A stretch of DNA of 64,000 bases from contig DYJT01000011.1 in assembly GCA_020722965.1 (NCBI GenBank), positions 4,554 through 68,553 of the forward strand. Reading direction: 5' to 3'. This document shows positions 9,755 to 52,726 of this stretch, in pieces. The first letter of the stretch is position 1. Each line of letters starts with the position of its first letter. Under the pieces are notes generated by a model, which was not told where the DNA came from, did not search any database, and saw only the letters and a program-made list of their open reading frames with translations. This DNA is from Brachyspira murdochii. GTDB lineage: Bacteria > Spirochaetota > JAAYUW01. The position numbers were made by a program, and so were the translations under genes.

Positions 9755-9897
9755 TTTTTGCCCTAATTAAAATATATTTGTTATAAATTTTAAATCTCAA
9801 GTAAAAATAAACTTTTACTCAAAATAGTCAATTTAACTTGTGATTTGATATTTTTATGATAAAATTTTTGTGTAATTCAATAAACAAAGGTAAAAAT

Positions 9898-10434
9898 ATG
9901 AATAATCTTGAAAAAATTCTAGATGATTCAATAGCAAAAGTCAAAGACTTCCCAAAAAAGGGGATCCTGTTTTATGATATTACATCAATTCTCTTAAAAC
10001 CTTCTGTTTTTAATCTTGTAATTGAAAATTTATTTAATTATTATTCCAATTCTTCTATCGACGGAATAATTGCAGTAGAATCTCGTGGTTTTATTTTCGC
10101 CTCCCCTCTTTGCTTAAAGTTTAATGTACCCTTAATTCTTGCAAGAAAAAAAGGGAAACTTCCAAGGCAGACAATCTCCGAAAGTTATTCTCTTGAATAC
10201 GGACAAGAAACCATAGAAATACATAAAGACGATATTATCAAAGATAAAAATTATCTACTTATAGATGACCTTATTGCTACAGGTGGCACCTTAAAGGCGA
10301 TTGCTAATCTTGTAGAAAGATCTGGAGCAAAGGTTTGCGGTATAGCAGCAGTTATAGGTTTACCATTTTTAAATTATGACAGATTAATTGGCAAATACAA
10401 TGTTAAAACTTTAATAAATTACCATACTGAGTAA
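9898..10434 (+). CDS. apt: Adenine phosphoribosyltransferase
   Basis: PRPP loop LLIDDLIATGGT and the N-terminal FPKKGILFYDIT motif. I moved the start from the ORF-track 9856 to ATG 9898, which has AAAGG about 8 nt upstream. Confidence 0.9.
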   Translation: MNNLEKILDDSIAKVKDFPKKGILFYDITSILLKPSVFNLVIENLFNYYSNSSIDGIIAVESRGFIFASPLCLKFNVPLILARKKGKLPRQTISESYSLEYGQETIEIHKDDIIKDKNYLLIDDLIATGGTLKAIANLVERSGAKVCGIAAVIGLPFLNYDRLIGKYNVKTLINYHTE

Positions 10435-11095
10435 AGAAATTTAATAATCTTTGTATCTTTTTTTGTGAACCTAGACTCTTTATCTGGTTTTGATTGAAAA
10501 TTGAGTTAATTATATTTACATATCGATCGGTGTTTTCACCTTCTATTTCCAATTCATAGTCTTCAAAATTTTTACTTTTATCATTACTATAATGTTTAAC
10601 AAGATCTAAATCGAAAGGCATATTGTAAAATTGTAAAATTCCGTGAAATCTTTCAATTTCATTTTGCCCTAAAAGTTCAAGATAATCTTGATTTATTGAT
10701 AGATCATTTTTAAGTTCCTGTATAAATGAAATTGTTTGTTGATTTATTCCTAATTCATTTAATTCTTTTACATTAAGCGGAAATTTATCTTTGATCCTTT
10801 CTATATTAATATCATCAATTATGAAATCGAATTCTTTCGCCACCTGTAACTCTGGACTTTGTTCATTAGGTAATCTGCCTATTAGATTTGCCTTTACATT
10901 TAAGTGATAATGATCAAATCCTTCCCATCTTCTTATTCTAAAAGCCATTGAAGGCAAAAAAGTAAAAGGAATTGTGTCATAATAATATGTATAAATAATA
11001 GAAAGCTTTTTGTTTTCACCATAAAGATCAAAATATTGTTTTAATTTTAAATAATCCTGTTTTGATAATGAATATTTTAATTCTTTTTCGATCAT
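10403..11095 (-). CDS. CYTH-domain (triphosphate tunnel metalloenzyme) protein
   Basis: 230 aa with an N-terminal ExExK signature (IEKELKY). The alternating charged beta-strand pattern is typical of CYTH. Its 3' end overlaps apt convergently by 32 nt. Confidence 0.55.
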   Translation of the reverse strand: MIEKELKYSLSKQDYLKLKQYFDLYGENKKLSIIYTYYYDTIPFTFLPSMAFRIRRWEGFDHYHLNVKANLIGRLPNEQSPELQVAKEFDFIIDDINIERIKDKFPLNVKELNELGINQQTISFIQELKNDLSINQDYLELLGQNEIERFHGILQFYNMPFDLDLVKHYSNDKSKNFEDYELEIEGENTDRYVNIINSIFNQNQIKSLGSQKKIQRLLNFFTQYGNLLKF

Positions 11096-11133
11096 ACATA
11101 ATCCTTATCTTTTTTTGAAAAATTTTACTAAAA

Positions 11134-11694
11134 TTAAGTAAATTTATTTAAAAATCTATATCTAATCTCTTTTACCACTTTTTCCCCAAATGAACTATCC
11201 TTCTTATAAGGTAAATTTTGTAATTTAATATAATTCAACATCTTTTGTTTCCAGGATTTATCTGAAGAATCTATGATAAAATCACAGTAATTGAAATAGA
11301 TAGGAAGCCTTTGAAAATAAAGTCTTTCAAACTGATCAAAATTTGTAACCTTAGGTCTACCGCTACTACGAACTCTTTCCCATAAAATATTTAAAGGAGT
11401 ATATAAAAATATAATTTTGTTTTTATTTTTTAGTTCAATCAAACTGTTAACAGAAGATAGAGTCCCGCCTCCTAAGGATATTATAATGTTATCATTAAAA
11501 AGTAAATTTTGAAAAATAAAAATTTCAAATTCTCTGAATGACCTCTCTTTATATAGAGTAAAGATTTGGTCTATTCTTTTACCTGTGATTATTTGAATTA
11601 ATTGATCTAGATCAAAGCAATTGTAATATTTACTAAGAAATTTAAATGCAGAGGTTTTACCACAGCCCATATAACCAGAAATTAGTATATTCAC
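11134..11694 (-). CDS. aroK: Shikimate kinase
   Basis: 186 aa with Walker A GYMGCGKTS, a DLD shikimate-binding motif and LGGGT. The GTG start forms a GTGA overlap with the stop of the upstream MBL gene. Confidence 0.75.
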   Translation of the reverse strand: MNILISGYMGCGKTSAFKFLSKYYNCFDLDQLIQIITGKRIDQIFTLYKERSFREFEIFIFQNLLFNDNIIISLGGGTLSSVNSLIELKNKNKIIFLYTPLNILWERVRSSGRPKVTNFDQFERLYFQRLPIYFNYCDFIIDSSDKSWKQKMLNYIKLQNLPYKKDSSFGEKVVKEIRYRFLNKFT

Positions 11695-12593
11695 AGGTTT
11701 AAAACTAGTCCTTCTCTCGCTAAAATTACCTTCAAATTTAAATTGTTTTGAAATAGATATTTTTGTATAATACCATCAATGTAATCAAGTTGATTATCTG
11801 TTCTAACAGGATCATGATGAAACAATACGACAGTCTTAACATTTGCTTTTAAACCAAGGCTTAATGCATATTCATAATATGAATGGCCATATCCTTTTTT
11901 TGATTCATTATACTCCTTTTTCGTATACTGACCATCGATAATAGCATAATCAGCATTTTTGCAAAATTCAATTAGTTTATTGTTTAGCTTAACAATTTCT
12001 TCAAAAGACAATTTGCCCTGTAAATTTTTTGCTTGATTATCATCGGCAAAAAAATTGTCATATGGTTCATGATCATATACTGTTACAAGAACTTTGTTCA
12101 TATATTCTATTCTATAACCCAATGTAATACAAGGATGATTTAACCTTATAGTCTTAATTTTTACATCATATATAGAAAAAGTAGTTTCAGTGAGTTGTAA
12201 TTCTCTAATCTTAGCTTCTATTTCATGCACGCTCACAGGAAAATATTTATGTTCAAGCTGAGAAAGAATGATCTCTTTTAGTGTCTGCTCAGTCGATGAT
12301 TCGGGTCCATACATTGAAATAGTATTTTTACCCTGGTAAATTGGTGCAAAAAAAGGGATTCCCATTATATGATCCCAATGAGTATGGGTAAATATAATAT
12401 TTATATCTAAAGGTGTCCTTTTATTATTTAATAGATAATTTCCTAAAGACCTTATCCCTGTTCCAGCATCAATAATAATATACTTCTGCTCATCAAACTC
12501 AACCAGTATAGAGCTTGTATTCCCGCCATATTTAATGGTGAAAGGACCTGGTACGGGAAAAGACCCACGAACCCCAAAAAGAGTTATCTTCAT
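11691..12593 (-). CDS. MBL-fold metallo-hydrolase
   Basis: 300 aa with HxHxDH as HTHWDH and an N-terminal LFGVRGSFPVPG...YGGNTSS...IIDAGTG pattern. An ATGA overlap joins it to the rhomboid stop. Confidence 0.7.
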   Translation of the reverse strand: MKITLFGVRGSFPVPGPFTIKYGGNTSSILVEFDEQKYIIIDAGTGIRSLGNYLLNNKRTPLDINIIFTHTHWDHIMGIPFFAPIYQGKNTISMYGPESSTEQTLKEIILSQLEHKYFPVSVHEIEAKIRELQLTETTFSIYDVKIKTIRLNHPCITLGYRIEYMNKVLVTVYDHEPYDNFFADDNQAKNLQGKLSFEEIVKLNNKLIEFCKNADYAIIDGQYTKKEYNESKKGYGHSYYEYALSLGLKANVKTVVLFHHDPVRTDNQLDYIDGIIQKYLFQNNLNLKVILAREGLVLNL

Positions 12594-13537
12594 CTACCTA
12601 AATCCTGTTTTTTTAATACATCCCTAAGTATACAATGTAAAAGTTCTTTACAATTCAGGCACTTCTGGTCATCATACTTAAATTCGGAAGGCTCACATAG
12701 GACAATAGTATTTCTTTTATCCATCTCTACCAATTTCATAAGTGTAGAAATTTCCTGTTGCGAAAATCTAATATTATTTTTAAGCTTATAAAGGCACATA
12801 TTAATGAAAAAAGCCAGTTCTTGTGGGGACATCTTTACTTTATTGCCAAATCTTGAAAACCCAGAATTCTGATTCTTTCTTGCGTCCCTTGTAACGGTTA
12901 TATCTATCTTAATTAACTTGAACATAATTGCGAAAAGTATAAATCCTACCAGTAAACCAGACAAATGAGCCCAATGCGCTACATTCCCGCCACTACCTGA
13001 AAATTCAGCCATTAAATCTCCTGCAAGAAAAAATAAAGGTAAATACTTCGCCTTTAGTGGAATTATAAAGAAAAGCATTATTATTGCATTAGGGAAAGTA
13101 AAGGCAAAACCAACTGTTAAAGCATAAATGACTCCTGAAGCACCAATCATGGGTGAAAGTAAACCTGTTCGTAGGTAAATTGAAGTATAGATAAGAGAGG
13201 AAACCACCCCTGTTAAAATACCTGATAAAAAGTAAAAAACCAAAAATCTTTTTTTACCCCATATTCTCTCGAGCGGAATTCCAAACATTAATAATGCAAA
13301 CATATTAAAAAATATATGACCAATTCCATTAATATCATGAAGAAAAAAATGAGTTAAAAACTGCCAAAGATAAAGTTTAGTAAAAACATAATATGGGACC
13401 AGGGAAAATTTTTGAAGGATATAATTCCATGGTAGTATTTGCAAGTTACAAAAAAAATAAATTACTACATTAATCCCAATAAGAATATAAGTAATAGGTA
13501 AAGTCTGATTTTTTCTTTGATATCCAAAATTCATCAA
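12590..13537 (-). CDS. Rhomboid-family intramembrane serine protease with Cys-rich cytoplasmic tail
   Basis: 315 aa with HFFLHDINGIGHIFFNMF (the HxxxxHxxxN region), catalytic GASGVIYA and the AHLSG histidine. The C-terminal roughly 100 aa are soluble and contain C-x11-C-x2-C-x5-C. Confidence 0.8.
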   Translation of the reverse strand: MMNFGYQRKNQTLPITYILIGINVVIYFFCNLQILPWNYILQKFSLVPYYVFTKLYLWQFLTHFFLHDINGIGHIFFNMFALLMFGIPLERIWGKKRFLVFYFLSGILTGVVSSLIYTSIYLRTGLLSPMIGASGVIYALTVGFAFTFPNAIIMLFFIIPLKAKYLPLFFLAGDLMAEFSGSGGNVAHWAHLSGLLVGFILFAIMFKLIKIDITVTRDARKNQNSGFSRFGNKVKMSPQELAFFINMCLYKLKNNIRFSQQEISTLMKLVEMDKRNTIVLCEPSEFKYDDQKCLNCKELLHCILRDVLKKQDLGR

Positions 13538-13597
13538 TAATTCCTTTATGAATACAATCTGGATTTAAATTATCATAAAATCTTCTGTTGTAAAATA

Positions 13598-16585
13598 TTA
13601 AACCAAAGATTCTGCCAGTTTTGAGGAAATATGATAATATTCCTCTTTTTCTTTCTCATTCCCCTGTCTTGAAAAGATAAATATGACTCCTAACAGCTGA
13701 CCTTCATCGAAAATACCATGTACATACATAGAATTCATTTCAGAAAAAAGCTCTGAATTTTTCTGAAGTAAAGGCTCGAATCGATTTATCCCTTCTGGAA
13801 TATAAATATCTTTTCTTAGTGTGGCTAATTTTTCAATAATAGGCTCATCTTTATCAAATTGGATCTCATAAAAATTACTATCAGAAGTACCACTACATGT
13901 AAAAAAATCTGGTTCTGCTTTATAAAAGGCAATTGCATCTATGTTATACTTTAAAGCAAAAGAGGAACATATGTCATCAAATGGTAATTTCTTTTCAATT
14001 GCTACCTCAGTATTTAAATCCTTAAATTCATCTTCAGAAATTTCTGGGAAATTTAAATCCTCCAAATTTTCAACATTTAAATCTTGTGATTCTTCATTTG
14101 TATTTAAAGATTCTGGAACTATATCTTCAATAGCAGCGTTTTCCATATCATTTTCTTTACCGGCAATTGTTTCATTTTCCAGTCCTGTCTGTTGGTAAGT
14201 TTCTTCTAATTCTTGTTTTTCTACTTCTTTAGTAACATTTTCAAGTTCTTCGGTTGATAGAGCTATTTCATCCGATGAAATATCACCAAAAAATTCACTT
14301 TCTTCTTCTTTTAGGTCTTCAACCATTTCATTACTAATTTCTTCGCTTTTTTCTTCCATTTTTTCTTCGTTTTGAATCTCTTGTATTTGTTCACCTTGTT
14401 GTTTGTCTTCGATTTCTAATTCTTCAGATAAGCTTCCAATAGGTTCTATATCAGAAAATTCGTCCAATGATGAAGGCATTTCTTGCAGATTTTTTTCAAT
14501 CTGTTCATCTGGTAATTTTTCTTCCAGCTCTTCTATTGGTGGAATTTCGAATTCTTCTGTTTTTTGTTCAGCTTGCTCAATTTCTTCTAATTCTTCAACT
14601 GTCTCTTTACCCGTGATTTCTGCTGAAATTGATTCTTCATAAGGTTTTTCAATGTTAAACTCTTCATTTGCCTCTAGTTCTTCTATTTTAGGTAATTCCG
14701 TGAAAGAAGATTCTTCTTCGGCAAATGTTTCGGCAGTAGTTTTTGGTTTTTCTTCGGTAAGAGAAGAAAAATCTTCTAAAGGTGGAATTTCTTCACTAAT
14801 TTCAACCGATGGTATTTCATTATTTTCTTCTGCAACCAGCTCTTCCAAAGTTGGTAGTTCTTCCTCTGAACTTTTTAATTTGTTAAAATTCAAATCTTCA
14901 TTTTCTTTGCTTTCTTCTAAAATAGTTTGATCCTCTAAATCTGGTAATGAAATTTCCTCAGGATTTATTTCTGGCATCGTTTCATGAATTGATTCCACTT
15001 CTTCCAATTTTTCTTCAACTTTTTCTGCTACTTGCGGTATCTGATTGCTTTGATTTTCTTCGACTTCTTCCTCAACCTGGACGGGCTGTTCTATTTGCTC
15101 TTCTAGTTTCTCCTCACCAATTTCAGGTAATTCCATGGATTCAAGTTCTTTAATCTCTTCCTTTATTGAAACTACCTCCTCTGGAAGTTCAAATTCCTGG
15201 TTTTCTGTGGGTTTTTCAAAGGATTCTTCTTGTTTATACTCCTCTTTAGATGCTTCCAGCTCTTCAAGACTTGGTAACTCACTTCCTTTAAGCTCGAATT
15301 CTTTTCCCTCTTGTATCTGCTCTATATTTTCTTCAAAACCTGTCTCCGAAAGAGAAAGCTCTTCTTGAGTTTTTTCTGTCGAAAATTCTGGTAATTCTGT
15401 GGACTCTGTTACAGGAACTTCAGGTGGATTAAATAAATACTCTTCTTCTAATGTAACTTCTAATGGTGATTTTTTTTGTGTTACATCCTCGACAAGAGAT
15501 TTAAATGATTTATCTAACGTTTTTTCTGTATTGACTTCTTCGAAAAAGAAATCTTTTTTCTTTTCATCACTTGAAACAGCAGATAAAAATTCCTCTTCTT
15601 CCTGCTCATTTTTTAATTCTTCATATTGCTCAGGCTTTTTATAATACTTATTACCCTGAACATCGATTTGTTCTTCTTTTGGTGAAAAGAAAAATGCTAA
15701 AAGCACATAAATAATTAAAATTATGATTGTAAGTAAATAAAATGATATAACTACCTGAACTATTAAAGGTGTTCCTACCTTATTATATGGTAATACAACA
15801 ACATGCTTTCCAGATTTCCCAACCTGACTTGAAAAAAAGTAATATTTAGTTTCTCCAATTTTCACAGGTCCTAATGTCTTATTTGATTCTTCTATAGAGG
15901 TAAGGACATCGGAAAACCTAGTTTTTTGTTCTAGAAGTTCTTTTTCTACATTATAAATAATCATATTGTATTGTCTTACGAAGACAAATTTTTTTATACT
16001 TAGAGGACTTTTTTTGATAGGCTCAGCCAATAGTGAAGTACCGGAATAATGAAAGAGAGCCAAACCAAGTACTTTACCATTTTTTTGAACTGGATACCCT
16101 AAAACGACTTCATCTGTTTCTTGAATCTCTTTTGAAGTTTGAAAAGGTAAAATAGAATATTCTTTAGTTAAAAAATTGTTAAAATAATCCGATGCGATGA
16201 CCATCCCTTTTCTTTTAGATGCATAAGGGGGATAGACAAAAAAGATTGTTTTTTCGTTATTGACAAAGGTTATGCCATAGCAGTTTTTGTTTCTGATAGT
16301 ATATTCATAAACTTCACTGTAAACTTTATCAGTTATAATCTGATTCTCGAAACTATCTACTATAAAAGAGTTTTCTGTCAAATCCTTCATCTTGGCTCTT
16401 TCAATCTGTAATTGACCCAAAAACTCTATGCCTATTTGATCTACCTGTTTTTGTATTGATTGTATAGTATTAGAAACATTAATAGAAATAGGTATAATTT
16501 TTAAATTATAACCAATTGCTAATATTAAAAACAAAATTAAACCTAGAAAAATTGAAATTAGAATGTTTTTAGCGCTCTGGCTCAT
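13598..16585 (-). CDS. Bitopic membrane protein: Cache-like ectodomain, TM, about 570-aa poly-acidic linker, GAF-like C-terminal domain
   Basis: 995-aa ORF with TM1 ILISIFLGLILFLILAIGY and TM2 VVISFYLLTIIILIIYVLLAFFF. A Glu-dominated region with repeated ELPxLEEL-type motifs follows. The last roughly 140 aa have ordinary composition and a GAF-like pattern (..NIDAIAFYKAE.., ..GQLLGVIFIFS..). Confidence 0.5.
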   Translation of the reverse strand: MSQSAKNILISIFLGLILFLILAIGYNLKIIPISINVSNTIQSIQKQVDQIGIEFLGQLQIERAKMKDLTENSFIVDSFENQIITDKVYSEVYEYTIRNKNCYGITFVNNEKTIFFVYPPYASKRKGMVIASDYFNNFLTKEYSILPFQTSKEIQETDEVVLGYPVQKNGKVLGLALFHYSGTSLLAEPIKKSPLSIKKFVFVRQYNMIIYNVEKELLEQKTRFSDVLTSIEESNKTLGPVKIGETKYYFFSSQVGKSGKHVVVLPYNKVGTPLIVQVVISFYLLTIIILIIYVLLAFFFSPKEEQIDVQGNKYYKKPEQYEELKNEQEEEEFLSAVSSDEKKKDFFFEEVNTEKTLDKSFKSLVEDVTQKKSPLEVTLEEEYLFNPPEVPVTESTELPEFSTEKTQEELSLSETGFEENIEQIQEGKEFELKGSELPSLEELEASKEEYKQEESFEKPTENQEFELPEEVVSIKEEIKELESMELPEIGEEKLEEQIEQPVQVEEEVEENQSNQIPQVAEKVEEKLEEVESIHETMPEINPEEISLPDLEDQTILEESKENEDLNFNKLKSSEEELPTLEELVAEENNEIPSVEISEEIPPLEDFSSLTEEKPKTTAETFAEEESSFTELPKIEELEANEEFNIEKPYEESISAEITGKETVEELEEIEQAEQKTEEFEIPPIEELEEKLPDEQIEKNLQEMPSSLDEFSDIEPIGSLSEELEIEDKQQGEQIQEIQNEEKMEEKSEEISNEMVEDLKEEESEFFGDISSDEIALSTEELENVTKEVEKQELEETYQQTGLENETIAGKENDMENAAIEDIVPESLNTNEESQDLNVENLEDLNFPEISEDEFKDLNTEVAIEKKLPFDDICSSFALKYNIDAIAFYKAEPDFFTCSGTSDSNFYEIQFDKDEPIIEKLATLRKDIYIPEGINRFEPLLQKNSELFSEMNSMYVHGIFDEGQLLGVIFIFSRQGNEKEKEEYYHISSKLAESLV

Positions 16586-16612: not shown

Positions 16613-17800
16613 TTAAAAATCTTTAAAATCTGGTATATCATCAATATTTATTGGTTTACCGACTACATTCTTTTCTTCCTTTTTTTCTTCTTGATATCCT
16701 TCTTTATTTTTATCTTTTTCAATTATATTATTGTTCACTTTTTCAATTTTTTCCATTTTTTTTGTTTCATCTGTAAAATTATTTTCAATTTTTTTATCTT
16801 TAAATTTTATATTTTCCCCTTTATATTCATCGAACAGATATTGTTTAAGTAGCAAATAACCAAATACAAGCAACAATATAACAATAATAAAAATAATTGC
16901 AAAAAAGCTAAAAAATTTCATCGGGCTTATTGGGTAGTAAAAACCTACAACTACTTCCATTAAAGATTGTGAAAGAGGATAATAATAAAAAGAATGATAT
17001 TGAATTTTGGGGTAGGAACCTTTATAAAACAATTTAAAATCATCTTTTAAATTCGTTATTTCACCACTGAAGTTTTCGATTAATGAATAATAGTAAATTC
17101 CATCATCATCCATTAACATTGCAATAATAACGGGTTTTGAGCCTTTTAAAGATAGTTTATATTTTGTTACATAAAGTTTTTTTTCTGTCTTTTGATCCCT
17201 TTTTTCATTATTTTCTTTTATTTGTTTATCTTTATTATTTATTAGATTAGAATTTTTTTCGATTTCATTGTATTTTTGTTTTTTTAATTTTTCATATTCA
17301 TCATTTTTAATCATTTGAATTTTAAAATGATATTTTATAAATTTTTCAAGATTTAATTTTTTTGACTCATCTACGGTATAAATATTAATTATAAGATCTT
17401 TATTTGATGGAATTCCAGAAGTAGAATATAAAAGCATAGTATTTAAAACAATTTCATCATAATTTTTAGCATAATCTTTTAATTCTCTTATCTTGATATC
17501 AAGCTCGGTATTTTTATTCCTTTTATTAGAATCTTTTTGTTTTTCAGAATTTAATAAATTAGCAAAATTGTTAATAGAACTAAATATTTTATTATATATG
17601 ACTTTTAAGGCATAAACTGTTTTCCCTGTTAATTTTTTTAAATCATATATAATTATACTTATTGAATTTTTTACAAGAAATTTAATTTGATTACTCTTTT
17701 GAATAATCCCATCATTAGAATAAGCAGAACAACTAAAAAGGAAAATACAAACTATAAAAAAAATTATAGATAATATAATATTAAATTTATTAATACCCAT
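16613..17800 (-). CDS. Lipoprotein-like bitopic membrane protein with K/E-rich cytoplasmic tail
   Basis: 395 aa. The N-terminal hydrophobic segment ends in a relaxed lipobox-like LFSC. A second TM (FSFFAIIFIIVILLLVFGYLLL) lies near aa 300. The charged tail ends in DDIPDFKDF. Confidence 0.5.
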   Translation of the reverse strand: MGINKFNIILSIIFFIVCIFLFSCSAYSNDGIIQKSNQIKFLVKNSISIIIYDLKKLTGKTVYALKVIYNKIFSSINNFANLLNSEKQKDSNKRNKNTELDIKIRELKDYAKNYDEIVLNTMLLYSTSGIPSNKDLIINIYTVDESKKLNLEKFIKYHFKIQMIKNDEYEKLKKQKYNEIEKNSNLINNKDKQIKENNEKRDQKTEKKLYVTKYKLSLKGSKPVIIAMLMDDDGIYYYSLIENFSGEITNLKDDFKLFYKGSYPKIQYHSFYYYPLSQSLMEVVVGFYYPISPMKFFSFFAIIFIIVILLLVFGYLLLKQYLFDEYKGENIKFKDKKIENNFTDETKKMEKIEKVNNNIIEKDKNKEGYQEEKKEEKNVVGKPINIDDIPDFKDF

Positions 17801-17961
17801 ATCTTTACTTTTCGGAATGTTTTAAATTTCTTTTACCAATATATGATATAAAACTAATATCTGCTTTTGAACCAAAATGCCTGGTTTGAAACTGGTCAAA
17901 ATTCTACTTTTGAACTGATAATTTATTAGGTTTAAATTTATAAATTAATTATAAAATTGTG

Positions 17962-17990
17962 TTGACAGATTTCAATAAGTATACCAAAAT
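17962..17990 (+). promoter_or_regulatory. Candidate sigma70-type promoter for the NhaC-family gene
   Basis: TTGACA at 17962-17967, a 17-nt spacer, then CAAAAT at 17985-17990. The GGAGG RBS is at 18018-18022. Chance matches are common in AT-rich DNA. Confidence 0.3.
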
Positions 17991-21147: not shown

Positions 21148-23268
21148 TTATAATTTATCTTTATATTTTTGCAACTTATCAAAAAGGCCAGTATCTCTTT
21201 TAGTCCTATTTTTTAATGCCGATTTTAAATTATCTTTTGAGCCTAAAATTATAAAATCCTTTTTTGCCCTTGTTATTGCAGTGTAGATAAGCTCTAAAGA
21301 AATAAATTGGTATTTTTCGATATCATCTGGAATTATAAGGATAATTATATCGAATTCAGAACCCTGACCCTTATGAACTGTTATAGAATATGCAGGTTCC
21401 CAGTTTGATAATGCAGTCAATGGAAATTTTCTGATATTTTCATTGGAATCCTCTTCAAAATATGCATAGGCCTTTTCATCTTCAGAATATAAGAATCCAA
21501 TATCACCATTAAATAGATTCAGCTGATAGTTATTTTTCATTATGATTATTGGAACAAATGAAGAATAATTTTTAGTCCTTAAAAAATTCGCAAATATATT
21601 ATTTAAATTGTATGTACCAAAGGTTGTAAATTTCAAAGGTGTCAATATCTTAAATTTTTTATTTAACTTTTGAAATTGATTAAATTCTTTTTTATCAACA
21701 ATGCTTTTATCGTCTTTATGACTATCGTTTAAATTTATTGGCGTCTCAAAGTCAAATATATCGTTATAACCTAATTCATTTAGTCTATTAATTATTTTAT
21801 TAAATATCTCATTTTTAAAAAAATCATTTGATTGAAGTAGTCTATTATTTCTTTCAACAAAATCGATAAATTCATCTATGATATAATCCTTTTTTTGCTT
21901 ATCTTTTTCTATAAAGATATTGTCCAATTTTTCTCTTACCTTTTCTACAAAAGAATCTTTTTCATATCTATAAGATTTTTTAAGCTCAATGAGATTTTTT
22001 CCTGTATAACCCTTTTCAGACAAAAACTCTTTAATATCTGCAAATACTCTGCCGGCTTCAACTGATGAAAGTTGATTGGAATCACCACTTAAAAAAATCT
22101 TGGAATGATCATCTATAGCATCTAAAAGTTTAGCCATTAGAGGGATATCTATCATGGATGCCTCATCTACAATTATGAGTTTTTGAGATGCCGGGTTTTC
22201 CCTGTTATGCTTCAATGATAATTTGAATTCCGAACTACCAAGAAATCTATGAATAGTCATAGAATCTATTAAAAGTTGATCGGAACTTAAATTTATACCA
22301 AATTTTTCTTTTTGATTATCCGGTATTTTGTCATTCAAATAGACAATTTTTTCTTTTAATACCTCTAATATTCTGTTTGCTGCCTTCCCTGTAGGTGCTA
22401 TTGCTATTATCTGTTTTTTATTTAATCCATAAAGATACATATGAGCGAGTATAATCAAAGAGAGGATAAAAGTCTTCCCTGTACCGGGACCTCCAGTAAT
22501 AAGAATGAAATTACTCAAGACTGAGCACTTTAAGGCTTCAAGTTGTAAAGGATCAAGCTCTTTTTCAAAGATAGATAAAAAGATATTTAGTTTTTGTTGT
22601 AATTTATTATCATCAATTAATGAGCTTGACTTATCCATAAACAATCTTTTGCCTATATTCTGGGCTATCAGCATTTCATATATATAAAACCTTCTAAAAT
22701 AAACTTTGTCATTATTTTCAATTATAAAAATCAAAGGGATATAAAACTCAGAAGTCGTTACCTTCTCATCAAATAAATATCTTCTCCCAATACTTTCATT
22801 ATTTTTATTCGTATCATTTATTTCTTTATTTTCATTGTATTCATCACTTTCATCAACAGCATTAATCTTGAGAGAATTTATAATTGACAAAATATTTTCA
22901 ATTGTATCGAATTTATAAAAATACCTTTTGTTATTTAAATTATTACCTAAACTATCGAGGCGATCAGAAAGTTTATCTAATAAAACCTCGGCAAAATCGG
23001 TTAATTTGCCTGCAATAAAAATATTTTCAGACTCTGCAATTTCTTTTAACGAAACATAAGTATTTCCATCGTCTAACGATACATTACAAACAATAAGAAG
23101 AAAAAATAGTAGTTTTAACTCTTTTTCATTAATATTTTCAAAAGAAAATTTATTAGCATCGATAATATTCTTTAATTCATAAGCACTTTTGTCATAAAAA
23201 TAGCTTAAGATATTGAATGAAAGTAAAATATCTGAATTCTGAATTTCAAAACAAAGATTCTTGCCCAT
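21148..23268 (-). CDS. recD: Exodeoxyribonuclease V alpha subunit RecD, with a long N-terminal extension
   Basis: 706 aa with Walker A ITGGPGTGKTF, Walker B IIVDEASMID, LSGDSNQLSSVEAG and TVHKGQGSEFD. About 240 aa precede the helicase core. Confidence 0.85.
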   Translation of the reverse strand: MGKNLCFEIQNSDILLSFNILSYFYDKSAYELKNIIDANKFSFENINEKELKLLFFLLIVCNVSLDDGNTYVSLKEIAESENIFIAGKLTDFAEVLLDKLSDRLDSLGNNLNNKRYFYKFDTIENILSIINSLKINAVDESDEYNENKEINDTNKNNESIGRRYLFDEKVTTSEFYIPLIFIIENNDKVYFRRFYIYEMLIAQNIGKRLFMDKSSSLIDDNKLQQKLNIFLSIFEKELDPLQLEALKCSVLSNFILITGGPGTGKTFILSLIILAHMYLYGLNKKQIIAIAPTGKAANRILEVLKEKIVYLNDKIPDNQKEKFGINLSSDQLLIDSMTIHRFLGSSEFKLSLKHNRENPASQKLIIVDEASMIDIPLMAKLLDAIDDHSKIFLSGDSNQLSSVEAGRVFADIKEFLSEKGYTGKNLIELKKSYRYEKDSFVEKVREKLDNIFIEKDKQKKDYIIDEFIDFVERNNRLLQSNDFFKNEIFNKIINRLNELGYNDIFDFETPINLNDSHKDDKSIVDKKEFNQFQKLNKKFKILTPLKFTTFGTYNLNNIFANFLRTKNYSSFVPIIIMKNNYQLNLFNGDIGFLYSEDEKAYAYFEEDSNENIRKFPLTALSNWEPAYSITVHKGQGSEFDIIILIIPDDIEKYQFISLELIYTAITRAKKDFIILGSKDNLKSALKNRTKRDTGLFDKLQKYKDKL

Positions 23269-23356
23269 AATTAAAAAATCCTTAAAATTAAAAAATTTTT
23301 AAAAAATTAAAATTAAATAAATTAAAAATAAAACTAAACTAAAAAATATTAAAATA

Positions 23357-26300
23357 TCATTCTAATAATATTTTACTAAGTTCTTCCAGCTGATCTTTAT
23401 CTATTTTTTTTGAATAAACACCATTGTTATTTTTTTCATCCACATATCTCACAAAAAAGTAATAAATATTAATGAAATCATATGGTAATTTATTGACCTT
23501 TATATATTTGTAAACTGCTGCTGAATATAGATAATATTGAATATCATAATTATTTTTAATCATTGCCCTATCTATAATATTTTTATCAATAACATTTCCT
23601 TGAAAATCTTCTTGTGTTAAATCGGAGAGATTATTTGTTTTCCAATCAATTATATTTATTGTATTGTTTTCAATGAATAAAAGGTCAATAAAACCTCTAT
23701 AATACCCATTTATAAAAACTTCTTTTAGCTCCTTTTCGCTAACCTTTCTGTTGCAAGCTTTGTAAAAACTTAATAGATTATTTTTTCTGGCTTTAGCAAA
23801 AAATTCGACTTCACTTAGGGCATTATCAATATCGATTATCCTCTTTTTTAATAATGGTATTTCTGCTTTTAGGGTGTTAATCACAAGATTTGTATTTTCA
23901 TCTACAAAATTTTTAATTATATCCTTACTTCTATAATATTTAATGATTATCTTTTCACTTATATTCTTTATCTTTTCAATAAATTCTTGATTTATCTCTT
24001 CTTTTATATCTTGTTTGTTATTAAATATATTTTGCATGGTTTCATGGAATATATTCCCGGCAATTTTCCCCATAAAACTAGAATATCTTTCTTCAAAATC
24101 ATAAGAATTTTCTTGTGTAAAAGGCTTAAAATCAATGACATATTCTAATGCAATTTTCCTGGTTTTTTCAGATTCTTTTGGCAAATTATGAATATGAACT
24201 ATGGAAGAATAAGAATAAGAATTTTCGATTTTTTCATTAAAAATACCTGTATCTAATTCTTCAGCCTTTTTGATATTACTAATTTTACTTAAATTGTTTT
24301 CTTTAATGTCAATTTCTAATTTTTTTTCTTCAAATGAATCATAATCTATAGGATAAATTCTTTTTAAATTTTTTATTAATTTATTAATATTATTTTTATT
24401 TTTTTCGCTATTTTCATCTTCTTTTTCTTCATCTTTTTCAATAAAAATATAAAGATTGTTTTTTGCCCTGGTTGTTGCGACATAGAAAGTATTATAATTT
24501 TGTAAATTTAGTGTGTCCCTTATTTTTTTATTTATTTTATTTTTTAAATCTTTCTTAGTGTCTTTATTCGTTTTAATGTTGCTGCTTAATCTAAATTTTT
24601 TAATCCAATAACCATTATCCTCTTCATAGTATATGTAAGTACCTTTATTTATAGATGCGTTAACAAATAATTTTGGACAAAAAACTGTATTATATTCAAG
24701 ACCTTTTGCACTATGTATAGTAGAGATTATGACTGCGTTTTCTTCATTTTCTAATCGCATAGATGAAAGATCCATTTGATCTTCATCAAAATTCTGTGAA
24801 ATTAAATTTTTAAGAAAATCCAATTGATTATTTAAAGAAATGTCTTGATCACTAAAATTAATAGCCAGAAACTCGAAAATTTGACGGATATTGGTTAATC
24901 TTCTCTCATAATCTTTGATAGTAAAAGGATTAAAATATTTTATAGGGAAAATTGAGTTTAAAAATATATTTTCAAATACTGAAAATATTCCATGTTTTTC
25001 CCAATCTTGATGTAGAGTTTCAAGGGGTAAAATCAGCTCGGAATAGATACTGGCGATATTTCTGTTAATATAATCAAAACTAAATGTAAAGTAATTTGTC
25101 GAAACCAACCTTTTAACTTCTGTTATTCTATTTTTATAAATAATTGCTGATAGTAAATAATAGATAAAAATTGCCTCATCTGTTTTGAAAACAGATTTAA
25201 ATATCTTCAATGCAACAGGGAATTTTTTTTCTGTAAAAATCCTGTAATAAGTTTCTATATCAACTTTGTTTTTTATTAATATTGCGATATCACCAAGATT
25301 TAAATTTTCATCTTTTCTTTTTAACTCTTCTATCTTTTGGATAATTCTTGTTGCTATTTTTTTGTAGAAACTATATTTGTTCTCCTTTTCAGCGGGAATT
25401 TCATAGATATTAACTTCGCTAAAAATATTATCACTATCTTGTCTGGCGCTTTCAACTTCCTTATATTTTATTTGTAAACTCTTATCCTCAGAATCCGTTT
25501 TATAATCTTCATAAACATATAATAATTCAGAAAATCTGTTAATAAAATATGTAACCACTTTAGTAGAGCGATATGTTTTAAAAAGTTTAATTTTATTTTC
25601 TTCTGGTATTGTATTTTCTATATTTAAATAATTATATAGATCTCCACCTCTAAAACCATAGATCGACTGTTTCGGATCACCTATATAGAAAACCTTTTTC
25701 CCTGAAAATATCTTCTGAAAAAGCTCAACCTGCATTTTATCCGTATCCTGAAACTCATCAACAATTAGAACCTCAAATCTTTTAGATATCTTTTCCTTTA
25801 TAGATGAATTACTAGACAGATTTTTTAAAAGCAATTCAATCGAATCATTAAATGAAAAATCTTTTAATTCCATTTTCAGATTAAATGAGTTTTGGGTATA
25901 AAATTTGAAAAATTGATTAAAATATTTTTCTTCAATGTCTACACTATAGTTAGCATCTGCTGATGAAAGCCTTTGATTTTCTATAAATTTTTGTAATTCC
26001 AAAAATTGCTTTATAAAATTATAATCATAAGTTTTAATTTTAATCTCATTATTTTTAAGTTCATTAGCTTTATCTTCATTAATAATATTGTTAAAATCTT
26101 TAATTAAATATTGATTATCATATAAAAACCTTTTTAATATTTCAAAATTCAATCTTTTATAATCTTTAGCAAACTCATAGTTAAAGCCAAGTCCTAATTC
26201 ACTTTCAAATTCTTTGCATAATCTTATAGTAAAAGAGTGTATTGTTGAGCTTATTATCTTATCAAAATCAAAAATTGCTTTTTCCAAATTTAAAATATAA

Positions 26301-26638
26301 TGACCAATTTCCTGAGGATTTTTTTCTTTTAACGAATCTATATAACCCAATAATAATTTATCATCTTTAATCTTTCTCAATAAGCTTACATCTTTTTTTT
26401 CAAAATAAGCTTTTACCTCGAATAAAAAGATCAAGATTCTGTCTTTTATCTCCTGCGCAGCTGCATTTGTAAATGTTACCAATATTATCTTGTCCGCTGG
26501 AATTCCATCCAGGATAAACTTTATGAAAAGCTGAGCTAAACAATGAGTCTTCCCTGTTCCGGCACTGGCTTCTATAAGATATTCTTTATTGTCAAAATTT
26601 GATTCAAAAATAAATTCAACACTATTCGCTTTCCCCAT
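23357..26638 (-). CDS. recB: Exodeoxyribonuclease V beta subunit RecB (UvrD-like helicase plus PD-(D/E)xK nuclease)
   Basis: Motifs EASAGTGKTH and VDEFQDTD, with C-terminal nuclease motifs GFIDLLF...IIDWKTN and QYYLYS. I prefer the ATG at 26638 (purine-rich AAGGGA upstream) over the ORF-track start at 26668. Confidence 0.85.
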   Translation of the reverse strand: MGKANSVEFIFESNFDNKEYLIEASAGTGKTHCLAQLFIKFILDGIPADKIILVTFTNAAAQEIKDRILIFLFEVKAYFEKKDVSLLRKIKDDKLLLGYIDSLKEKNPQEIGHYILNLEKAIFDFDKIISSTIHSFTIRLCKEFESELGLGFNYEFAKDYKRLNFEILKRFLYDNQYLIKDFNNIINEDKANELKNNEIKIKTYDYNFIKQFLELQKFIENQRLSSADANYSVDIEEKYFNQFFKFYTQNSFNLKMELKDFSFNDSIELLLKNLSSNSSIKEKISKRFEVLIVDEFQDTDKMQVELFQKIFSGKKVFYIGDPKQSIYGFRGGDLYNYLNIENTIPEENKIKLFKTYRSTKVVTYFINRFSELLYVYEDYKTDSEDKSLQIKYKEVESARQDSDNIFSEVNIYEIPAEKENKYSFYKKIATRIIQKIEELKRKDENLNLGDIAILIKNKVDIETYYRIFTEKKFPVALKIFKSVFKTDEAIFIYYLLSAIIYKNRITEVKRLVSTNYFTFSFDYINRNIASIYSELILPLETLHQDWEKHGIFSVFENIFLNSIFPIKYFNPFTIKDYERRLTNIRQIFEFLAINFSDQDISLNNQLDFLKNLISQNFDEDQMDLSSMRLENEENAVIISTIHSAKGLEYNTVFCPKLFVNASINKGTYIYYEEDNGYWIKKFRLSSNIKTNKDTKKDLKNKINKKIRDTLNLQNYNTFYVATTRAKNNLYIFIEKDEEKEDENSEKNKNNINKLIKNLKRIYPIDYDSFEEKKLEIDIKENNLSKISNIKKAEELDTGIFNEKIENSYSYSSIVHIHNLPKESEKTRKIALEYVIDFKPFTQENSYDFEERYSSFMGKIAGNIFHETMQNIFNNKQDIKEEINQEFIEKIKNISEKIIIKYYRSKDIIKNFVDENTNLVINTLKAEIPLLKKRIIDIDNALSEVEFFAKARKNNLLSFYKACNRKVSEKELKEVFINGYYRGFIDLLFIENNTINIIDWKTNNLSDLTQEDFQGNVIDKNIIDRAMIKNNYDIQYYLYSAAVYKYIKVNKLPYDFINIYYFFVRYVDEKNNNGVYSKKIDKDQLEELSKILLE

Positions 26639-29600
26639 TCTTTTTCCCTTTTTTATTGGATAAATCATATAGTTCTATAATTTTTTTTTCAAATTTTTCT
26701 ATATTTTCATAATTTTCTTTAAACATATTATTTTTGATTGCTCTATCAAAGATCCATTTTTTAAAATAAGAAAAAATATTGAAATTTTCGCTATAATTAT
26801 AGTCGCTAACAAAAATAGAATTCTCCCAATGGGCAACAATCTTATCCAAATTAATTCTCCCAAACTCTAAATATGATTCTTTATTATAATCTATTTCAAA
26901 TATTGGTATAAAATTTTTAAAAAAGATCATCAATTTATAAATTTCAAGAATATCTAATAATAAACAATCTTGCGATTCTTCCTTAATATTTTCAGATTTC
27001 CCATTTATTTTCAAAAGTTTTAAATTTTTATATGTTTCAGTAATAGCTTCCCTTTTTATATCAAAATCTTCCAATTGATAAAATTTCCCCAATAAACATT
27101 TATAAAGATAATTTTTAATTTTGTCATTTGGATTTTTTTTACTATCTTTTGAGTTTTTTGAATAATAGATTATTGCTTTTTCAGTTTCATTTTCTAAAAT
27201 TAACCAATATTTGATTTTTAATTTGAGATCTAACTTTTCAATTGGGATTATTCTTGTTTCTTCTTTTATCTCTAACTGATCGATATCAAAATTTAAACTA
27301 TTTGCTCTATTTACTAAATTTTCATCTATAACATTTATAAAGCTTGTTACATCGGATTGGAATAATTGGCTTTCTATTTCGGCTAAAGAGCCACGATGAT
27401 TCAAATATTTAATTTTTAAACAATCGGAATGTTCTTCAAACAATGGGTAATTATTTCTTCTTTTTTTTAATATTAATTTTAATAGTTCTATAAAATATCT
27501 TTGATATTTAATTTTTGAAACATATTTATCGAATTCTGATTCAACTTTTTGATTATTTATGTATTTTTGAATATTCAAAACCTTTTTTAAATAATGTTCG
27601 ACAGGTGAAATTATGAATTCAACAAGATCCTCAAAATCAATGGTATTAGTTTGATCTATTATTTCTGCCTTAAAATCTTTTGAATCTATAAATTTATCTG
27701 AATTATCTTTGAAAATCTTCTCTAAAAGATTTTCCCACCCTTTATTAAAAGTCACAAATTTATAATTTTCTTCATCAAAATATTTTTTGCTAAATGGTTG
27801 AAGTGGCATCAGATTTTTTTCTAACTTTATTTCTTTTTTCAAGATATCTGAAATCAAGTTTATATCCTGTTCCAACATCGTTATTAAAATTGATGGAGAT
27901 ATATCCTTATTACTAATAGGATCTTTACCAACATAACTTAATATTAAAAAATCTTTTGCAGATAAAATTGTCTGTAAAAATAGATATTTATCTGATTCCC
28001 TTAAATCCCTATCCCAGCTTTTCTTCTTATTAACAAGTAAATCATAGGAAAGATTAATTGAACTGCGAGGATAATTATCGTCACTTAGTCCCAATATTAC
28101 TATTACCCTTGCCGGGATATTTCTCAAGGTTATTAAATTTGAAAATAAAATTTTACCTTTGGTATAACCATAACTATATGGATAGGATTTCAAATATAAG
28201 ATTAAAAGATCTACCAATCTATTAAATGGGATTTGAATATCTTTTTTCCCAAAGTTCTGTTCAAAATTATTATAACCTAGTTCAATATCATTTAAAAAAT
28301 TTATAATTTTATTTCTATAGTATATGATTTCATCATGATACTCTTGTATATCTATAAAAAAAGTAGATAATAAATTTTCAAAAAAATTTCTGTATTCCTC
28401 TATATTATGAGTACTTTTTGCGAATTTATAAAAATATAAAATGTTAAGATAAATTGAATAAATTTTTTCGATTATCGTTAAAAATTCACCCTCAATTTCT
28501 GAATTTAAATTAATTATCTTATCTTTATATTTATTATAGACATTATTATCATAATATGAATTAGAAGATAAATATCCGATATAATATGTTAAAAAATTAG
28601 ATTCAATATCAAATTGAAATGAATTCGATTTATTAATATAATAACTACCTTTTATTTGTTTATAATAATTTGTTATATCTTCATAATCTACTCCCCATAC
28701 ATAATCTGAAAAAAGATCAGAAAATGAATCTATATCTTCATAATCAATTTCAAATTTTTTCATTATCATTTCATTTGAAATAAAATTTAAAAAATCTTTT
28801 TTGCTAAAATTAGATCTTAAAACTTCAAATAAAAGATTTAATAAATTAAATATATCAGAATTCTTAAAATTATCTTTATCCACTAACATATAAGGAAGGG
28901 AAGGACTCTGTAAATCAAAAACATTTTCTATAAAAGGCTGATATTTTGAAATATCGGGAGCCATCACAAAAATATCTTCATAGTTAAGGCTCTGATCCTT
29001 ACTTAAAATATAGCAAATCTTGTCTTTAACAGTCTCAATTTCCCTTAGTTTAGTATAATTTATCAAAATCTCTATGGAATTATCATCTACTAGATTAATA
29101 TTGGAAAGATCGTTTCCCTTGATAAAGTTTTGATATACATTTAGTAGAGTTTTGTCATCAGACTTTGCCTCATTTTTTCTACTTTTAAAATTTAATTTTT
29201 CAATTATATTATTATTTGTATAAGTAAAATATTTTAAAAAATCATTTATAAATTCTTTTTGATTATCAAAGCAAAATTTTAGTAATAATGAGGTTTTTTC
29301 TTCAGAATGGGTATTCTTTTCATTTTTATTTAAAATAGATAAAGGAACCCAAAAATAAAAATTTATATCTACAAATTTGGAGATAGTTTTTAAAAAATCG
29401 ATATAAAAATATGGAATATTGTCAAATCCTATAATAAATAAAGGGTTTGATGGGAAATTGGATTTAAAATTTTTATCTTTTAATCTTTTACCAATATTAA
29501 ATTTAATATTTTCAAAATTACTATTTATGATAAGTTTTATCAATTCTATCTGAAATTGGTTCTGGTAAATTTTACCTTCTTCTATTAATTCACCAAGGTT

Positions 29601-30086: not shown

Positions 30087-30261
30087 CTTATAAAACCCTT
30101 TAATATATTTTAAAATTACAATAATATTTGCCCATTATTTGTCAATTTTTATTTTATTGACACTACTTTCATTTTATATAAATTTATATAAATTTTTTAT
30201 ATCTTTAGTTTTAATTTATTATTAACTTATTCTTATTTTATCTCAAAATTTTAATAATTAA

Positions 30262-36802: not shown

Positions 36803-37444
36803 ATGGCATTATTTGATCAAGAAATTAAAGACCAACTAAAAAGCATCTTATCGTCTTTGAACAACACTATTAAGATTCTTTTTTTTACTCAAGAGATAGA
36901 ATGCCCATCTTGTAGTATGACTCACGAATTTTTGTCTGAGATAGTAGAATTAAGCGATAAGATGCACCTTTCTACTTATGAATTTAAAAAAGATAAGGAA
37001 ATCGCTGACAAATTTAAGATAGACAAAATACCGGCGATAATAGTTACAGATGAAAAAGAGACCATTCAGGGTGTTAGGTTTTTTGGAATGCCTGCAGGGT
37101 ATGAGATAAATTCGTTTTTATCCGCATGTCTTGAGGTTTCGGGGCATAAAGAAAATATTGATTCAAAGATTCTAGAAGAAATAAAAAAGATAGACAAAGA
37201 AATTCATATTCAAGTATTTATAACTTTATCCTGCCCTTACTGTCCATCGGCTGTTGCTACAGCTCATAAACTTGCAATTGAGAATAAAAATATTATTTCA
37301 GATATGGTAGAAAGCTCGACTTTCACCCCTATGGCCATTAAATACAATGTGTCCTCTGTGCCAAAAATAGTGATAAATGAAAAAAATGAATTTATTGGAG
37401 CACAACCGATAGAAAAATTTTTAGAGGTAATCAAAAATATTTAA
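36803..37444 (+). CDS. Glutaredoxin-like protein disulfide oxidoreductase with two thioredoxin folds
   Basis: 213 aa with two CxxC sites (CPSC and CPYC) in tandem thioredoxin-like halves, as in the AhpF N-terminal domain and archaeal/Thermotoga PDO. AGGAGG lies upstream. Confidence 0.75.
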   Translation: MALFDQEIKDQLKSILSSLNNTIKILFFTQEIECPSCSMTHEFLSEIVELSDKMHLSTYEFKKDKEIADKFKIDKIPAIIVTDEKETIQGVRFFGMPAGYEINSFLSACLEVSGHKENIDSKILEEIKKIDKEIHIQVFITLSCPYCPSAVATAHKLAIENKNIISDMVESSTFTPMAIKYNVSSVPKIVINEKNEFIGAQPIEKFLEVIKNI

Positions 37445-41326: not shown

Positions 41327-41486
41327 AAGATTACCTTAATTTTATTATAAAAAATTCAAAGTTTTTACTACTTTTTATATCATTACATTTTATTATTAAT
41401 GATAATATATTATAAATTATCTTCAAATATTTTTTACTTTACACTTTCTTAAAATATTTAATAAATATCTTAAAAAGGATAACAGA

Positions 41487-52652: not shown

Positions 52653-52726
52653 TATTCTTGCCCTTATAATTTTAATTAAAAATCTTGATTTTTCCAAATT
52701 ATCAACATTTAATTTTTTTGGTGATT

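Follow-up and report, generated by a model that had tools for sequence, protein, structure and literature searches.

A membrane protein with a reiterated peptide motif in its acidic linker, encoded beside a rhomboid protease in Exilispira-related spirochaetes

Introduction

What could a bacterial membrane receptor do in the cytoplasm if no recognisable output domain follows its second membrane helix? The question is raised by a gene for a 995-amino acid (aa) protein, hereafter the target, on a 64,000-nucleotide stretch of contig DYJT01000011.1 (assembly GCA_020722965.1, filed under Brachyspira murdochii; positions 4,554 to 68,553), hereafter the window. An original prediction, made from the DNA of the window without database searches, described a Cache-like ectodomain between two transmembrane (TM) helices, a long acidic linker with a reiterated peptide motif and a GAF-like C-terminus. 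The analysis reported here establishes that the target is a real, uncharacterised inner-membrane protein of a tiny spirochaete family, and shows from sequence comparison that its motif is no artefact of composition. We tentatively read the protein as a docking platform at the membrane, and weigh that reading against four others.

Architecture of the encoded protein

The gene and the main parts of its product are as follows.

13598..16585, minus strand: whole coding sequence, 995 aa; stop codon at 13598-13600
16505..16564, minus strand: TM1, a signal-anchor, aa ~8-27 by hydropathy; helix 5-27 in the AlphaFold2 (AF2) model
15770..16504, minus strand: extracytoplasmic domain, probably dCache-like, aa 28-272 (~245 aa)
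15686..15769, minus strand: TM2, aa 273-300, of unusually high conservation
15401..15685, minus strand: conserved acidic juxtamembrane segment, aa 301-395; EEEEEFLSAVSSEEKKKDFFFEE...KSLVEEVSQKKSPLEV..EEYVF
14006..15400, minus strand: poly-acidic, indel-rich linker with the motif array, aa 396-860
13601..13984, minus strand: GAF-fold domain, aa 868-995 (~128 aa), from AF2 and Foldseek

The open reading frame (ORF) begins with ATG, preceded ~6 nt upstream by a GAGG Shine-Dalgarno sequence. Hydropathy gives exactly two TM segments (~aa 8-27 and 273-300), in agreement with the original prediction of a 995-aa membrane protein with two helices around an extracytoplasmic region. The TM2 pattern IIxLIIYxLLxxF is retained even in the distant homologue P0010, and an invariant G-T-P stands at its periplasmic edge. 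The positive-inside signal is modest, since four Lys follow TM2; we infer that both ends of the protein face the cytoplasm (N-in/C-in) and that the Cache-type domain lies between the two helices.

Scans of Pfam and NCBIfam at E<=1 found no kinase, cyclase, HD, methyl-accepting chemotaxis protein (MCP), HAMP or DNA-binding domain, which bears out the earlier claim that an output domain is lacking. Whole-protein scans of the same libraries produced noise only (DUF3377 and PRK09609 matches on TM2), and PDB sequence searches with whole-family, ectodomain and GAF profiles returned nothing meaningful, their noise consisting of TM2 against TPC1 channels, a collagenase fragment and de novo helices. 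There was likewise no profile match of the target to a characterised scaffold family, a result under which the original prediction stands. The arrangement dCache-like - TM - polyacidic motif array - GAF was undescribed in all libraries searched; the related known kinds are Cache-type membrane receptors and acidic hub proteins.

Three Ser/Phe-rich ORFs run antisense to the target on the plus strand (13941-14198, 14652-14930 and 15399-15644; 85, 92 and 81 aa). They look like by-products, mirror images of the GAA-rich coding strand, and not like genes.

A reiterated motif in the acidic linker

The linker (aa 302-869, 568 aa) is 29% Glu and 33% Asp plus Glu, with a pI of 4.05; its 45 Lys and Arg face 189 Asp and Glu, for a net charge of -144, and it presumably forms a disordered tether of ~570 aa. 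The five strict copies of E-[LI]-P-x-[LI]-E-[ED]-[LF] reported by the original prediction were recovered at aa 436, 576, 599, 630 and 680, and all of its nine looser copies (9/9) are present in the translated sequence. The strict copies, and a second conserved element of the linker, lie at the following positions.

15257..15280, minus strand: motif copy 1, ELPSLEEL, aa 436-443
14837..14860, minus strand: motif copy 2, ELPTLEEL, aa 576-583
14768..14791, minus strand: motif copy 3, EIPPLEDF, aa 599-606
14675..14698, minus strand: motif copy 4, ELPKIEEL, aa 630-637
14525..14548, minus strand: motif copy 5, EIPPIEEL, aa 680-687
14231..14314, minus strand: second conserved linker island, EEESEFFGDISSDEIALSTEELENV, aa 758-785

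With their flanks the motif peptides of the target take forms such as EEFEIPPIEELEE and SELPSLEELEA. To assess chance occurrence, the linker was shuffled 5000 times with its composition preserved. The strict pattern, which was defined post hoc, was observed 5 times against 0.0034 expected (0/5000 shuffles reached 5), and a looser core written independently, [LIM]P.[LIMFV][EDS][ED], was observed 6 times against 0.16 expected (0/5000 shuffles). Every homologue carries 5-8 copies of the core, where 0.16-0.29 would be expected (0/5000 shuffles), and because the enrichment recurs in all of them the motif is not an accident of one sequence. Individual copies differ in synonymous codons (TTA/CTT/CTA/TTG, CCA/CCT, GAA/GAG) and 2-3 copies of 12-15-nt units are the longest DNA tandem array in the gene, which places the maintained repetition in the peptide.

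A logo built from 73 instances across the family, numbered from the Pro at position 0, has a hydrophobic residue at -3 in about half of the instances, E at -2, L or I at -1, a variable residue at +1, I or L at +2, E at +3, E or D at +4 and E, L or F at +5. The conserved islands of the linker are mostly motif copies (ELPSLEELE, ELPEEV, LPPLEDFS, FTELP..EE and EEFEIPPIEDL). At copy 1 the core L-P-x-L-E-[ED]-L-E is kept in 7/7 homologues, with the leading E variable, and copy 5 is conserved in orthologues as EEFEIPPIE[DE]L. A hypervariable linker devoid of a conserved motif, which the original prediction had named as the finding that would count against it, was not seen: although the linker is rich in indels, the motif occupies orthologous positions, and it is retained even in a homologue that is just 28-35% identical in the folded domains. 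A literature search on the peptide strings yielded nothing relevant.

Two further elements of the linker are conserved. The juxtamembrane segment, which in isolation had no Pfam match, is conserved to the same degree as the folded domains. The island EEESEFFGDISSDEIALSTEELENV resembles the juxtamembrane EEEEFLSAVSSDE, and has the form EEESEFFGDISSDEI.LS.EELENV across close homologues; P0010 retains a DIALSDKEISDIF stretch.

Family and sequence conservation

A search of 5.8 billion proteins returned six homologues besides the window protein, all of 831-992 aa. HMMER, run exhaustively with an ectodomain profile against 1.84 billion cluster representatives, added one distant homologue, P0010 (MCX8059029.1, 701 aa, from a Spirochaetota metagenome-assembled genome [MAG]), alongside three close cluster representatives of the Exilispira clade. 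Weak extra matches in that scan lay on GAF repeats of multi-GAF kinases and fell on the second half of the first PDC module; they were read as local similarity of the PAS/GAF/PDC type and not as homology. A homologue search with the C-terminal 136 aa gave one partial orthologue only. The hosts are Exilispira sp., an 'uncultured Brachyspira' MAG and unclassified Spirochaetales/Spirochaetota MAGs, and every named record is annotated 'hypothetical protein'. The family is tiny, and its members all come from one small clade of spirochaetes, made up of Exilispira and related Spirochaetota MAGs.

Mean column identity in the close set was 0.84 for the ectodomain, 0.83 for aa 301-395 and 0.82 for the GAF region, against 0.64, with many indels, for the rest of the linker. 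P0010 has the same architecture with a linker of 265 aa; it is 28% identical to the target in the ectodomain and 35% in the C-terminal domain, and its linker holds seven ELP[SKE]L[EDSA][ED] copies versus 0.11 expected. Linker length ranges from 265 to 568 aa across the family and is polymorphic on short time scales: relative to the near-identical P0004, P0003 carries a 132-aa linker insertion (columns ~646-782), apparently two tandem units of ~66 aa. The P0010 linker includes an exact internal duplication. Together these two cases indicate that the array expands and contracts, yet retains the motif.

The extracytoplasmic and C-terminal domains

The isolated ectodomain matched Pfam dCache_1 (PF02743) over profile positions 8-230 of 240 with 19.8 bits and E=6e-4, below the curated gathering cut-off of 45 bits, and the whole-protein scan of the target gave no dCache_1 match. 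P0010 matched the same profile with 18.8 bits (E=1.3e-3) as a whole protein, its best value being E=1.4e-4 with the isolated ectodomain. The AF2 model of this region is poor (pLDDT 36); its secondary structure consists of a long helix at 37-71 followed by two groups of strands. Foldseek searches with that model gave weak matches (E 4e-3 to 0.1, TM-score 0.1-0.3), nearly all of them to dCache/PDC sensors (Tlp3, PctC, Mlp24, HK1S-Z8/Z3, LuxQ, WalK and TlpC). The sub-threshold profile match, the order of secondary structure and the weak fold matches agree that the ectodomain is probably dCache-like. The Cache-like assignment of the original prediction is thus upheld in kind, by profile matches along the full length and by the fold matches, although each of these is sub-threshold or weak.

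In its layout of TM helix, ~250-aa ectodomain and TM helix the target resembles the dCache_1 transmembrane sensors, namely chemoreceptors (Tlp3, PctC, Mlp24), histidine kinases and GGDEF proteins, but it has no HAMP, MCP signalling, kinase or cyclase module after TM2, and its ectodomain yielded no assignable ligand-binding signature. More broadly, at E<=1 it differs from the conventional transducers (MCP, histidine kinase, GGDEF/EAL, adenylate cyclase, HD-GYP) in having no recognisable output domain.

The GAF-like C-terminus proposed by the original prediction was confirmed at the level of fold. These ~128 aa are of ordinary composition, and AF2, from a 7-sequence alignment, modelled them with a mean pLDDT of 84.9 and a core above 90. 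Foldseek against the PDB returned 162 matches at E<1e-3, and almost all of the best 50 of the 162 were GAF-type domains, led by fRMsr (free-Met-sulfoxide reductase), PtsP-GAF, NreA, NifA-like and phytochrome/cyanobacteriochrome (CBCR) GAFs with probability 1.00 and TM-score ~0.6. The GAF fold is a multi-stranded antiparallel beta-sheet, typically of six strands, flanked by helices. Searches with Pfam GAF, GAF_2 and GAF_3 gave no sequence match even at E<=10, so the domain is a divergent GAF fold; the GAF-like SpoVT_C matched weakly in 4/6 family members (best E=0.012). Its terminal position, with nothing downstream to regulate, is unusual among known GAF domains. A redox role was considered for two of its Cys, which are invariant in the Exilispira clade, but was rejected as they are absent in P0010.

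Neighbouring genes and a shared terminal peptide

The genes flanking the target on the same strand have the following features.

16613..17800, minus strand: upstream co-directional gene, 395 aa, separated from the target by a 27-nt gap
16616..16651, minus strand: C-terminal peptide of the upstream protein, INIDDIPDFKDF, with the core [DE]-I-P-[DH]-F-x-[DE] conserved in 5/5 orthologues
12590..13537, minus strand: rhomboid protease, downstream of the target after a 60-nt gap; Pfam Rhomboid E=6.7e-27
17948..17975, minus strand: promoter-like sigma-70 site, 11/12, upstream of the 395-aa gene; a consensus match only

The upstream protein consists of a lipobox signal (LFSC), a periplasmic domain with no Pfam family match, one TM helix directly preceded by an invariant G-F, and a Lys-rich cytoplasmic tail, with the tail peptide PINIDDIPDFKDF, that ends in INIDDIPDFKDF. 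Across the four orthologues this tail differs in both length and sequence and keeps the ending G-x-x-I-x-[IL]-x-[DE]-I-P-[DH]-F-x-[DE]. When every ORF of 100 aa or more in the 64-kb window is considered, the target and the upstream protein are the only carriers of the pattern. Since the tail is Lys-rich and only these two carry it, composition cannot explain the shared peptide, which offers the strongest hint that the motif may be a recognition element. The upstream lipoprotein was also considered as a paralogue of the target ectodomain and rejected (hhalign probability 0.6%).

The rhomboid retains its catalytic residues (GASG Ser, HxxxN and TM6 His) and scored 30 bits against the rhombosortase model, whose cut-off is 84. 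Its conserved C-terminal extension (12593-12922) is cytoplasmic, ~110 aa long and basic (pI 9.4). Four Cys in this tail, C-x11-C-x2-C-x5-C, are invariant across 5/5 loci and look like a putative zinc ribbon, and the isolated tail had no Pfam match. The co-directional run comprises the 395-aa gene, the target, the rhomboid, an MBL-fold hydrolase, a shikimate-kinase-like protein and a CYTH protein; its last gene pairs overlap by 4 nt, no convincing terminator was seen between its genes, and the site at 17948..17975 is the best promoter match of the region.

In close relatives the whole block from RecD to a hexapeptide transferase is syntenic, which, between such close genomes, is little evidence of a functional link. 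The distant locus L005 is more informative with respect to the neighbourhood of lipoprotein, target, rhomboid and MBL protein that the original prediction had singled out: the trio of upstream membrane protein (signal and TM), target homologue and rhomboid is kept there, whereas MBL and CYTH are not, and the flanks differ (UvrB upstream, a REC-HisKA-HATPase protein downstream). The L005 rhomboid, which is among the five with the four-Cys tail, is followed in the place of the MBL gene by a gene for a 400-aa cytoplasmic protein with HisKA and HATPase domains and a receiver-like N-terminus (13165-14367 of that locus, plus strand). The L005 upstream protein was examined as an orthologue of the one in the window; with an hhalign probability of 1.3% homology could not be demonstrated, and the two have just their architecture in common. 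A literature search on rhomboid neighbourhoods returned nothing useful.

A docking platform at the membrane

The reading that we favour, though tentatively and at a level that falls somewhat short of probable, is that the target is a membrane-anchored multivalent docking platform (hub) and not an enzyme. Each motif would be a low-affinity site for one common cytoplasmic reader, shaped as a short strand, Pro and amphipathic turn whose hydrophobic residues at -1, +2 and +5 would enter a hydrophobic groove of that reader, and the array would raise avidity and concentrate or cross-link the reader at the membrane. At the distal end of the tether, the GAF domain could offer a further surface for binding or act as a switch gated by a small molecule. 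The upstream lipoprotein would add one more site through its cytoplasmic tail peptide and, as this terminal peptide is closely related to the motif, would probably recruit the same reader. The rhomboid, which would belong to the same module, may itself be the reader, by way of its basic, four-Cys, zinc-ribbon-like tail, or else a protease that processes, releases or turns over the platform or one of the two membrane proteins, and the periplasmic domain might position the platform or gate it on ligand.

In favour of docking, the motif is enriched in every homologue, conserved in position despite indels and retained in P0010. The trio in L005, the invariants of the rhomboid tail, the operon-like spacing, the single good promoter match and the lack of terminators between the genes point the same way. 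So do the differing synonymous codons of the copies and the related peptide that ends the upstream protein, and HubP/FimV (PMC12918733) provides a general precedent for a hub made of a membrane anchor, a long acidic repeat region and a C-terminal binding domain. Several observations weigh against it. The Cache assignment lies under the Pfam threshold and the AF2 model of the ectodomain is poor. The GAF domain is itself acidic (pI 4.5) and therefore no obvious reader of an acidic peptide. Recent internal duplications in P0003 and P0010 inflate the motif counts. All homologous loci except L005 are those of close relatives with a syntenic block, and as only L005 is distant the neighbourhood evidence rests on two lineages. 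The L005 upstream protein has no detectable homology to the one in the window and ends in ...EKEILDL, an acidic and hydrophobic pattern of similar kind that lacks Pro; the argument from a shared motif is for these reasons limited to the Exilispira clade. Finally, that the motifs would be docking sites, that they would have a partner and that the rhomboid would take part are points that we infer from sequence.

Alternative explanations

Regulated intramembrane proteolysis is unlikely, yet deserves the most attention among the alternatives. The target, the upstream lipoprotein or both would be dedicated substrates of the adjacent rhomboid: ligand bound to the Cache-like domain would permit cleavage in or near TM2, and the acidic tail and GAF domain would be released. 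Because the released portion would be the output, this would explain why a conventional output domain is missing. The rhomboid is catalytically intact and lies directly downstream of the target in both the Exilispira clade and L005. TM2 is conserved far above the need of a passive anchor, with the invariant G-T-P at its periplasmic edge, and the predicted N-out/C-in orientation of this helix is one typical of rhomboid substrates; the G-F before the helix of the upstream protein is likewise invariant. Co-encoded pairs of rhomboid and substrate exist, such as AarA/TatA of Providencia and rhombosortase/GlyGly-CTERM. As in these, an intact rhomboid here stands beside membrane proteins with an N-out/C-in helix, which makes them candidate substrates; in contrast to the rhombosortase system, the proteins here have no recognised sorting signal and the rhomboid has its own conserved four-Cys tail. 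On the other hand, no motif could be confidently designated as the cleavage site, unrelated genes are frequent neighbours of bacterial rhomboids, so that adjacency in two lineages is weak evidence, and why a released tail should need a conserved motif array is left unexplained. Proteolysis is in any case compatible with docking, rather than an alternative to it.

Rather unlikely is a purely physical role, in which the linker would be an entropic bristle or a cation-binding polyelectrolyte that distances the GAF domain or buffers Mg2+, Ca2+ or polyamines, and the Pro motif would be structural, for example a helix N-cap. The extreme composition (29% Glu, net charge -144) fits such a role, as do the span of linker lengths from 265 to 568 aa and the 132-aa difference between P0003 and P0004; the acidic regions of HubP/FimV proteins are likewise poorly conserved (PMC12918733). 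Against a spacer, composition alone predicts 0.1-0.3 copies where 5-8 are found, the exact hydrophobic positions (-1, +2 and +5) and the Pro are kept across a large evolutionary distance, and a second protein, with a basic and not an acidic tail, ends in a related peptide.

It is improbable that the target is chiefly a small-molecule node, for instance of cyclic-nucleotide signalling, in which the GAF domain would bind a nucleotide or metabolite and the protein would cooperate with two genes close by, the CyaB-like CYTH gene and the phosphodiesterase-like MBL-fold gene. The GAF fold is confident, CYTH and MBL belong to the same co-directional run in the Exilispira clade, and the MBL protein matched a model of cyclic-nucleotide-degrading phosphodiesterases at E=3.5e-11, a score far below its cut-off. 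The MBL/CYTH run hints that the GAF domain may be tied to nucleotide signalling, but both genes are absent from L005, the MBL protein fits RNase Z models better, the two Cys invariant in Exilispira are not retained in P0010, and the motif array goes unexplained.

Many partners recognise the C-terminal tail of E. coli FtsZ, DYLDIPAFLRKQAD, in which I374 and L378 are the residues that ZipA, FtsA and MinC critically depend on (PMC4117426). That the motif imitates this peptide, so that the array would act as a decoy or tether binding FtsA, ZipA or another reader of the FtsZ tail at the membrane, is highly improbable: the logo agrees with the tail at five positions (hydrophobic -3, acidic -2, I/L at -1, P, and F/L/I at +2) and the upstream protein ends in [DE]-I-P-D-F, but the equivalent of L378 is Glu, the basic R/K that follows is replaced by acidic residues, the window holds no ftsZ, and so short a pattern makes the resemblance no more than a lead.

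Comparison with known systems

In HubP/FimV proteins a periplasmic domain and a membrane anchor are joined to a very long, unstructured acidic stretch in the cytoplasm, with a small folded domain at the C-terminus; the acidic region, which has imperfect repeats in HubP, varies in length and repeat number even between close species (PMC12918733). The target shares this overall logic with the proteins of Vibrio, Shewanella and Pseudomonas, including a long, acidic, variable linker and a repeated motif. It differs in having no LysM, FimV or TPR match in Pfam or NCBIfam and a Cache-like ectodomain instead, two TM helices as opposed to a signal peptide and LysM, a GAF domain in place of TPR, an 8-9-residue motif versus a repeat unit of 46 aa, and a spirochaete rather than a proteobacterial host. 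HubP/FimV may be regarded as the closest functional analogue; as the target lacks two of its defining features, LysM and the FimV TPR domain, the likeness is convergence or analogy at most, and not homology.

A more far-reaching version of the docking proposal strikes us as a long shot. Exilispira-like spirochaetes would have independently evolved a HubP-like hub with a code of short linear motifs, the peptide hydrophobic-E-[LI]-P-x-[LI/F]-acidic-acidic being present many times on the target and once, at the C-terminus, on the neighbour from the same operon. Its multivalent binding by a dedicated reader, for which the four-Cys tail of the rhomboid and the GAF domain acting in trans are candidates, would assemble a cluster or condensate at the membrane, with release or turnover under control of the rhomboid.

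Two bacterial peptides offer parallels to the motif itself. The acidic tip of SSB, DDDIPF, is necessarily C-terminal; its flavour is similar, but its spacing differs (IPF versus IPxF). In the FtsZ C-terminal peptide, as in the motif with its five like positions, acidic residues precede [IL]-P and an aromatic or aliphatic residue on a disordered tether. FtsZ has a single terminal copy with L-R-K after the core, whereas the target has many internal copies with acidic residues after it.

Eukaryotic scaffolds characteristically display conserved arrays of short linear motifs on disordered tails. In bacteria such arrays are rarely documented, and the best-known cases, the FtsZ tail and the SSB tip, each consist of one terminal peptide. 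In the present family the motif has been conserved while the folded domains diverged to ~30% identity, and it is apparently common to two adjacent membrane proteins. The motif array, the peptide of the neighbour and the persistent rhomboid form a coherent, testable module. Were a reader to be found, the module would represent a new bacterial docking code and the first spirochaete candidate for an organiser of the HubP type. It might also provide a bacterial rhomboid with a natural substrate or partner, and the physiological substrates of these proteases are mostly unknown. If the linker were a mere spacer, the target would still provide a new domain architecture, dCache - TM - polyacidic intrinsically disordered region - GAF. 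General importance is limited by the very narrow taxonomic range.

Other genes of the window

The window is chromosomal DNA of ~27% GC and includes housekeeping genes, namely homologues of recD, recB and recC as well as rpoD (57603-59429) and dnaG (59557-61332). Three consecutive genes at 21151-30134 on the minus strand encode a RecD-like protein (AAA_19/AAA_30/UvrD_C_2), a RecB-like protein (UvrD helicase) and RecC (Exonuc_V_gamma), and by their domain matches are probably a RecBCD operon. With rpoD and dnaG, the RecBCD-like genes place the locus in an ordinary chromosomal context.

Downstream of the rhomboid, the genes for the CYTH-domain protein, the shikimate-kinase-like P-loop protein and the MBL-fold hydrolase occupy 10403-12593 on the minus strand. 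The MBL hydrolase matched RNase Z and cyclic-nucleotide phosphodiesterase models weakly, all far below cut-off. A 192-aa gene (9856-10434, plus strand) and the CYTH gene (10403-11095, minus strand) are convergent, and their 3' ends overlap by 32 nt.

Two long minus-strand ORFs, 37444-40239 (932 aa) and 50340-52724 (795 aa), had no Pfam match at E<=1e-5. The 932-aa ORF overlaps an adjoining ORF for a calcineurin-like phosphoesterase (40196-41335), a pairing that suggests an SbcC/SbcD candidate.

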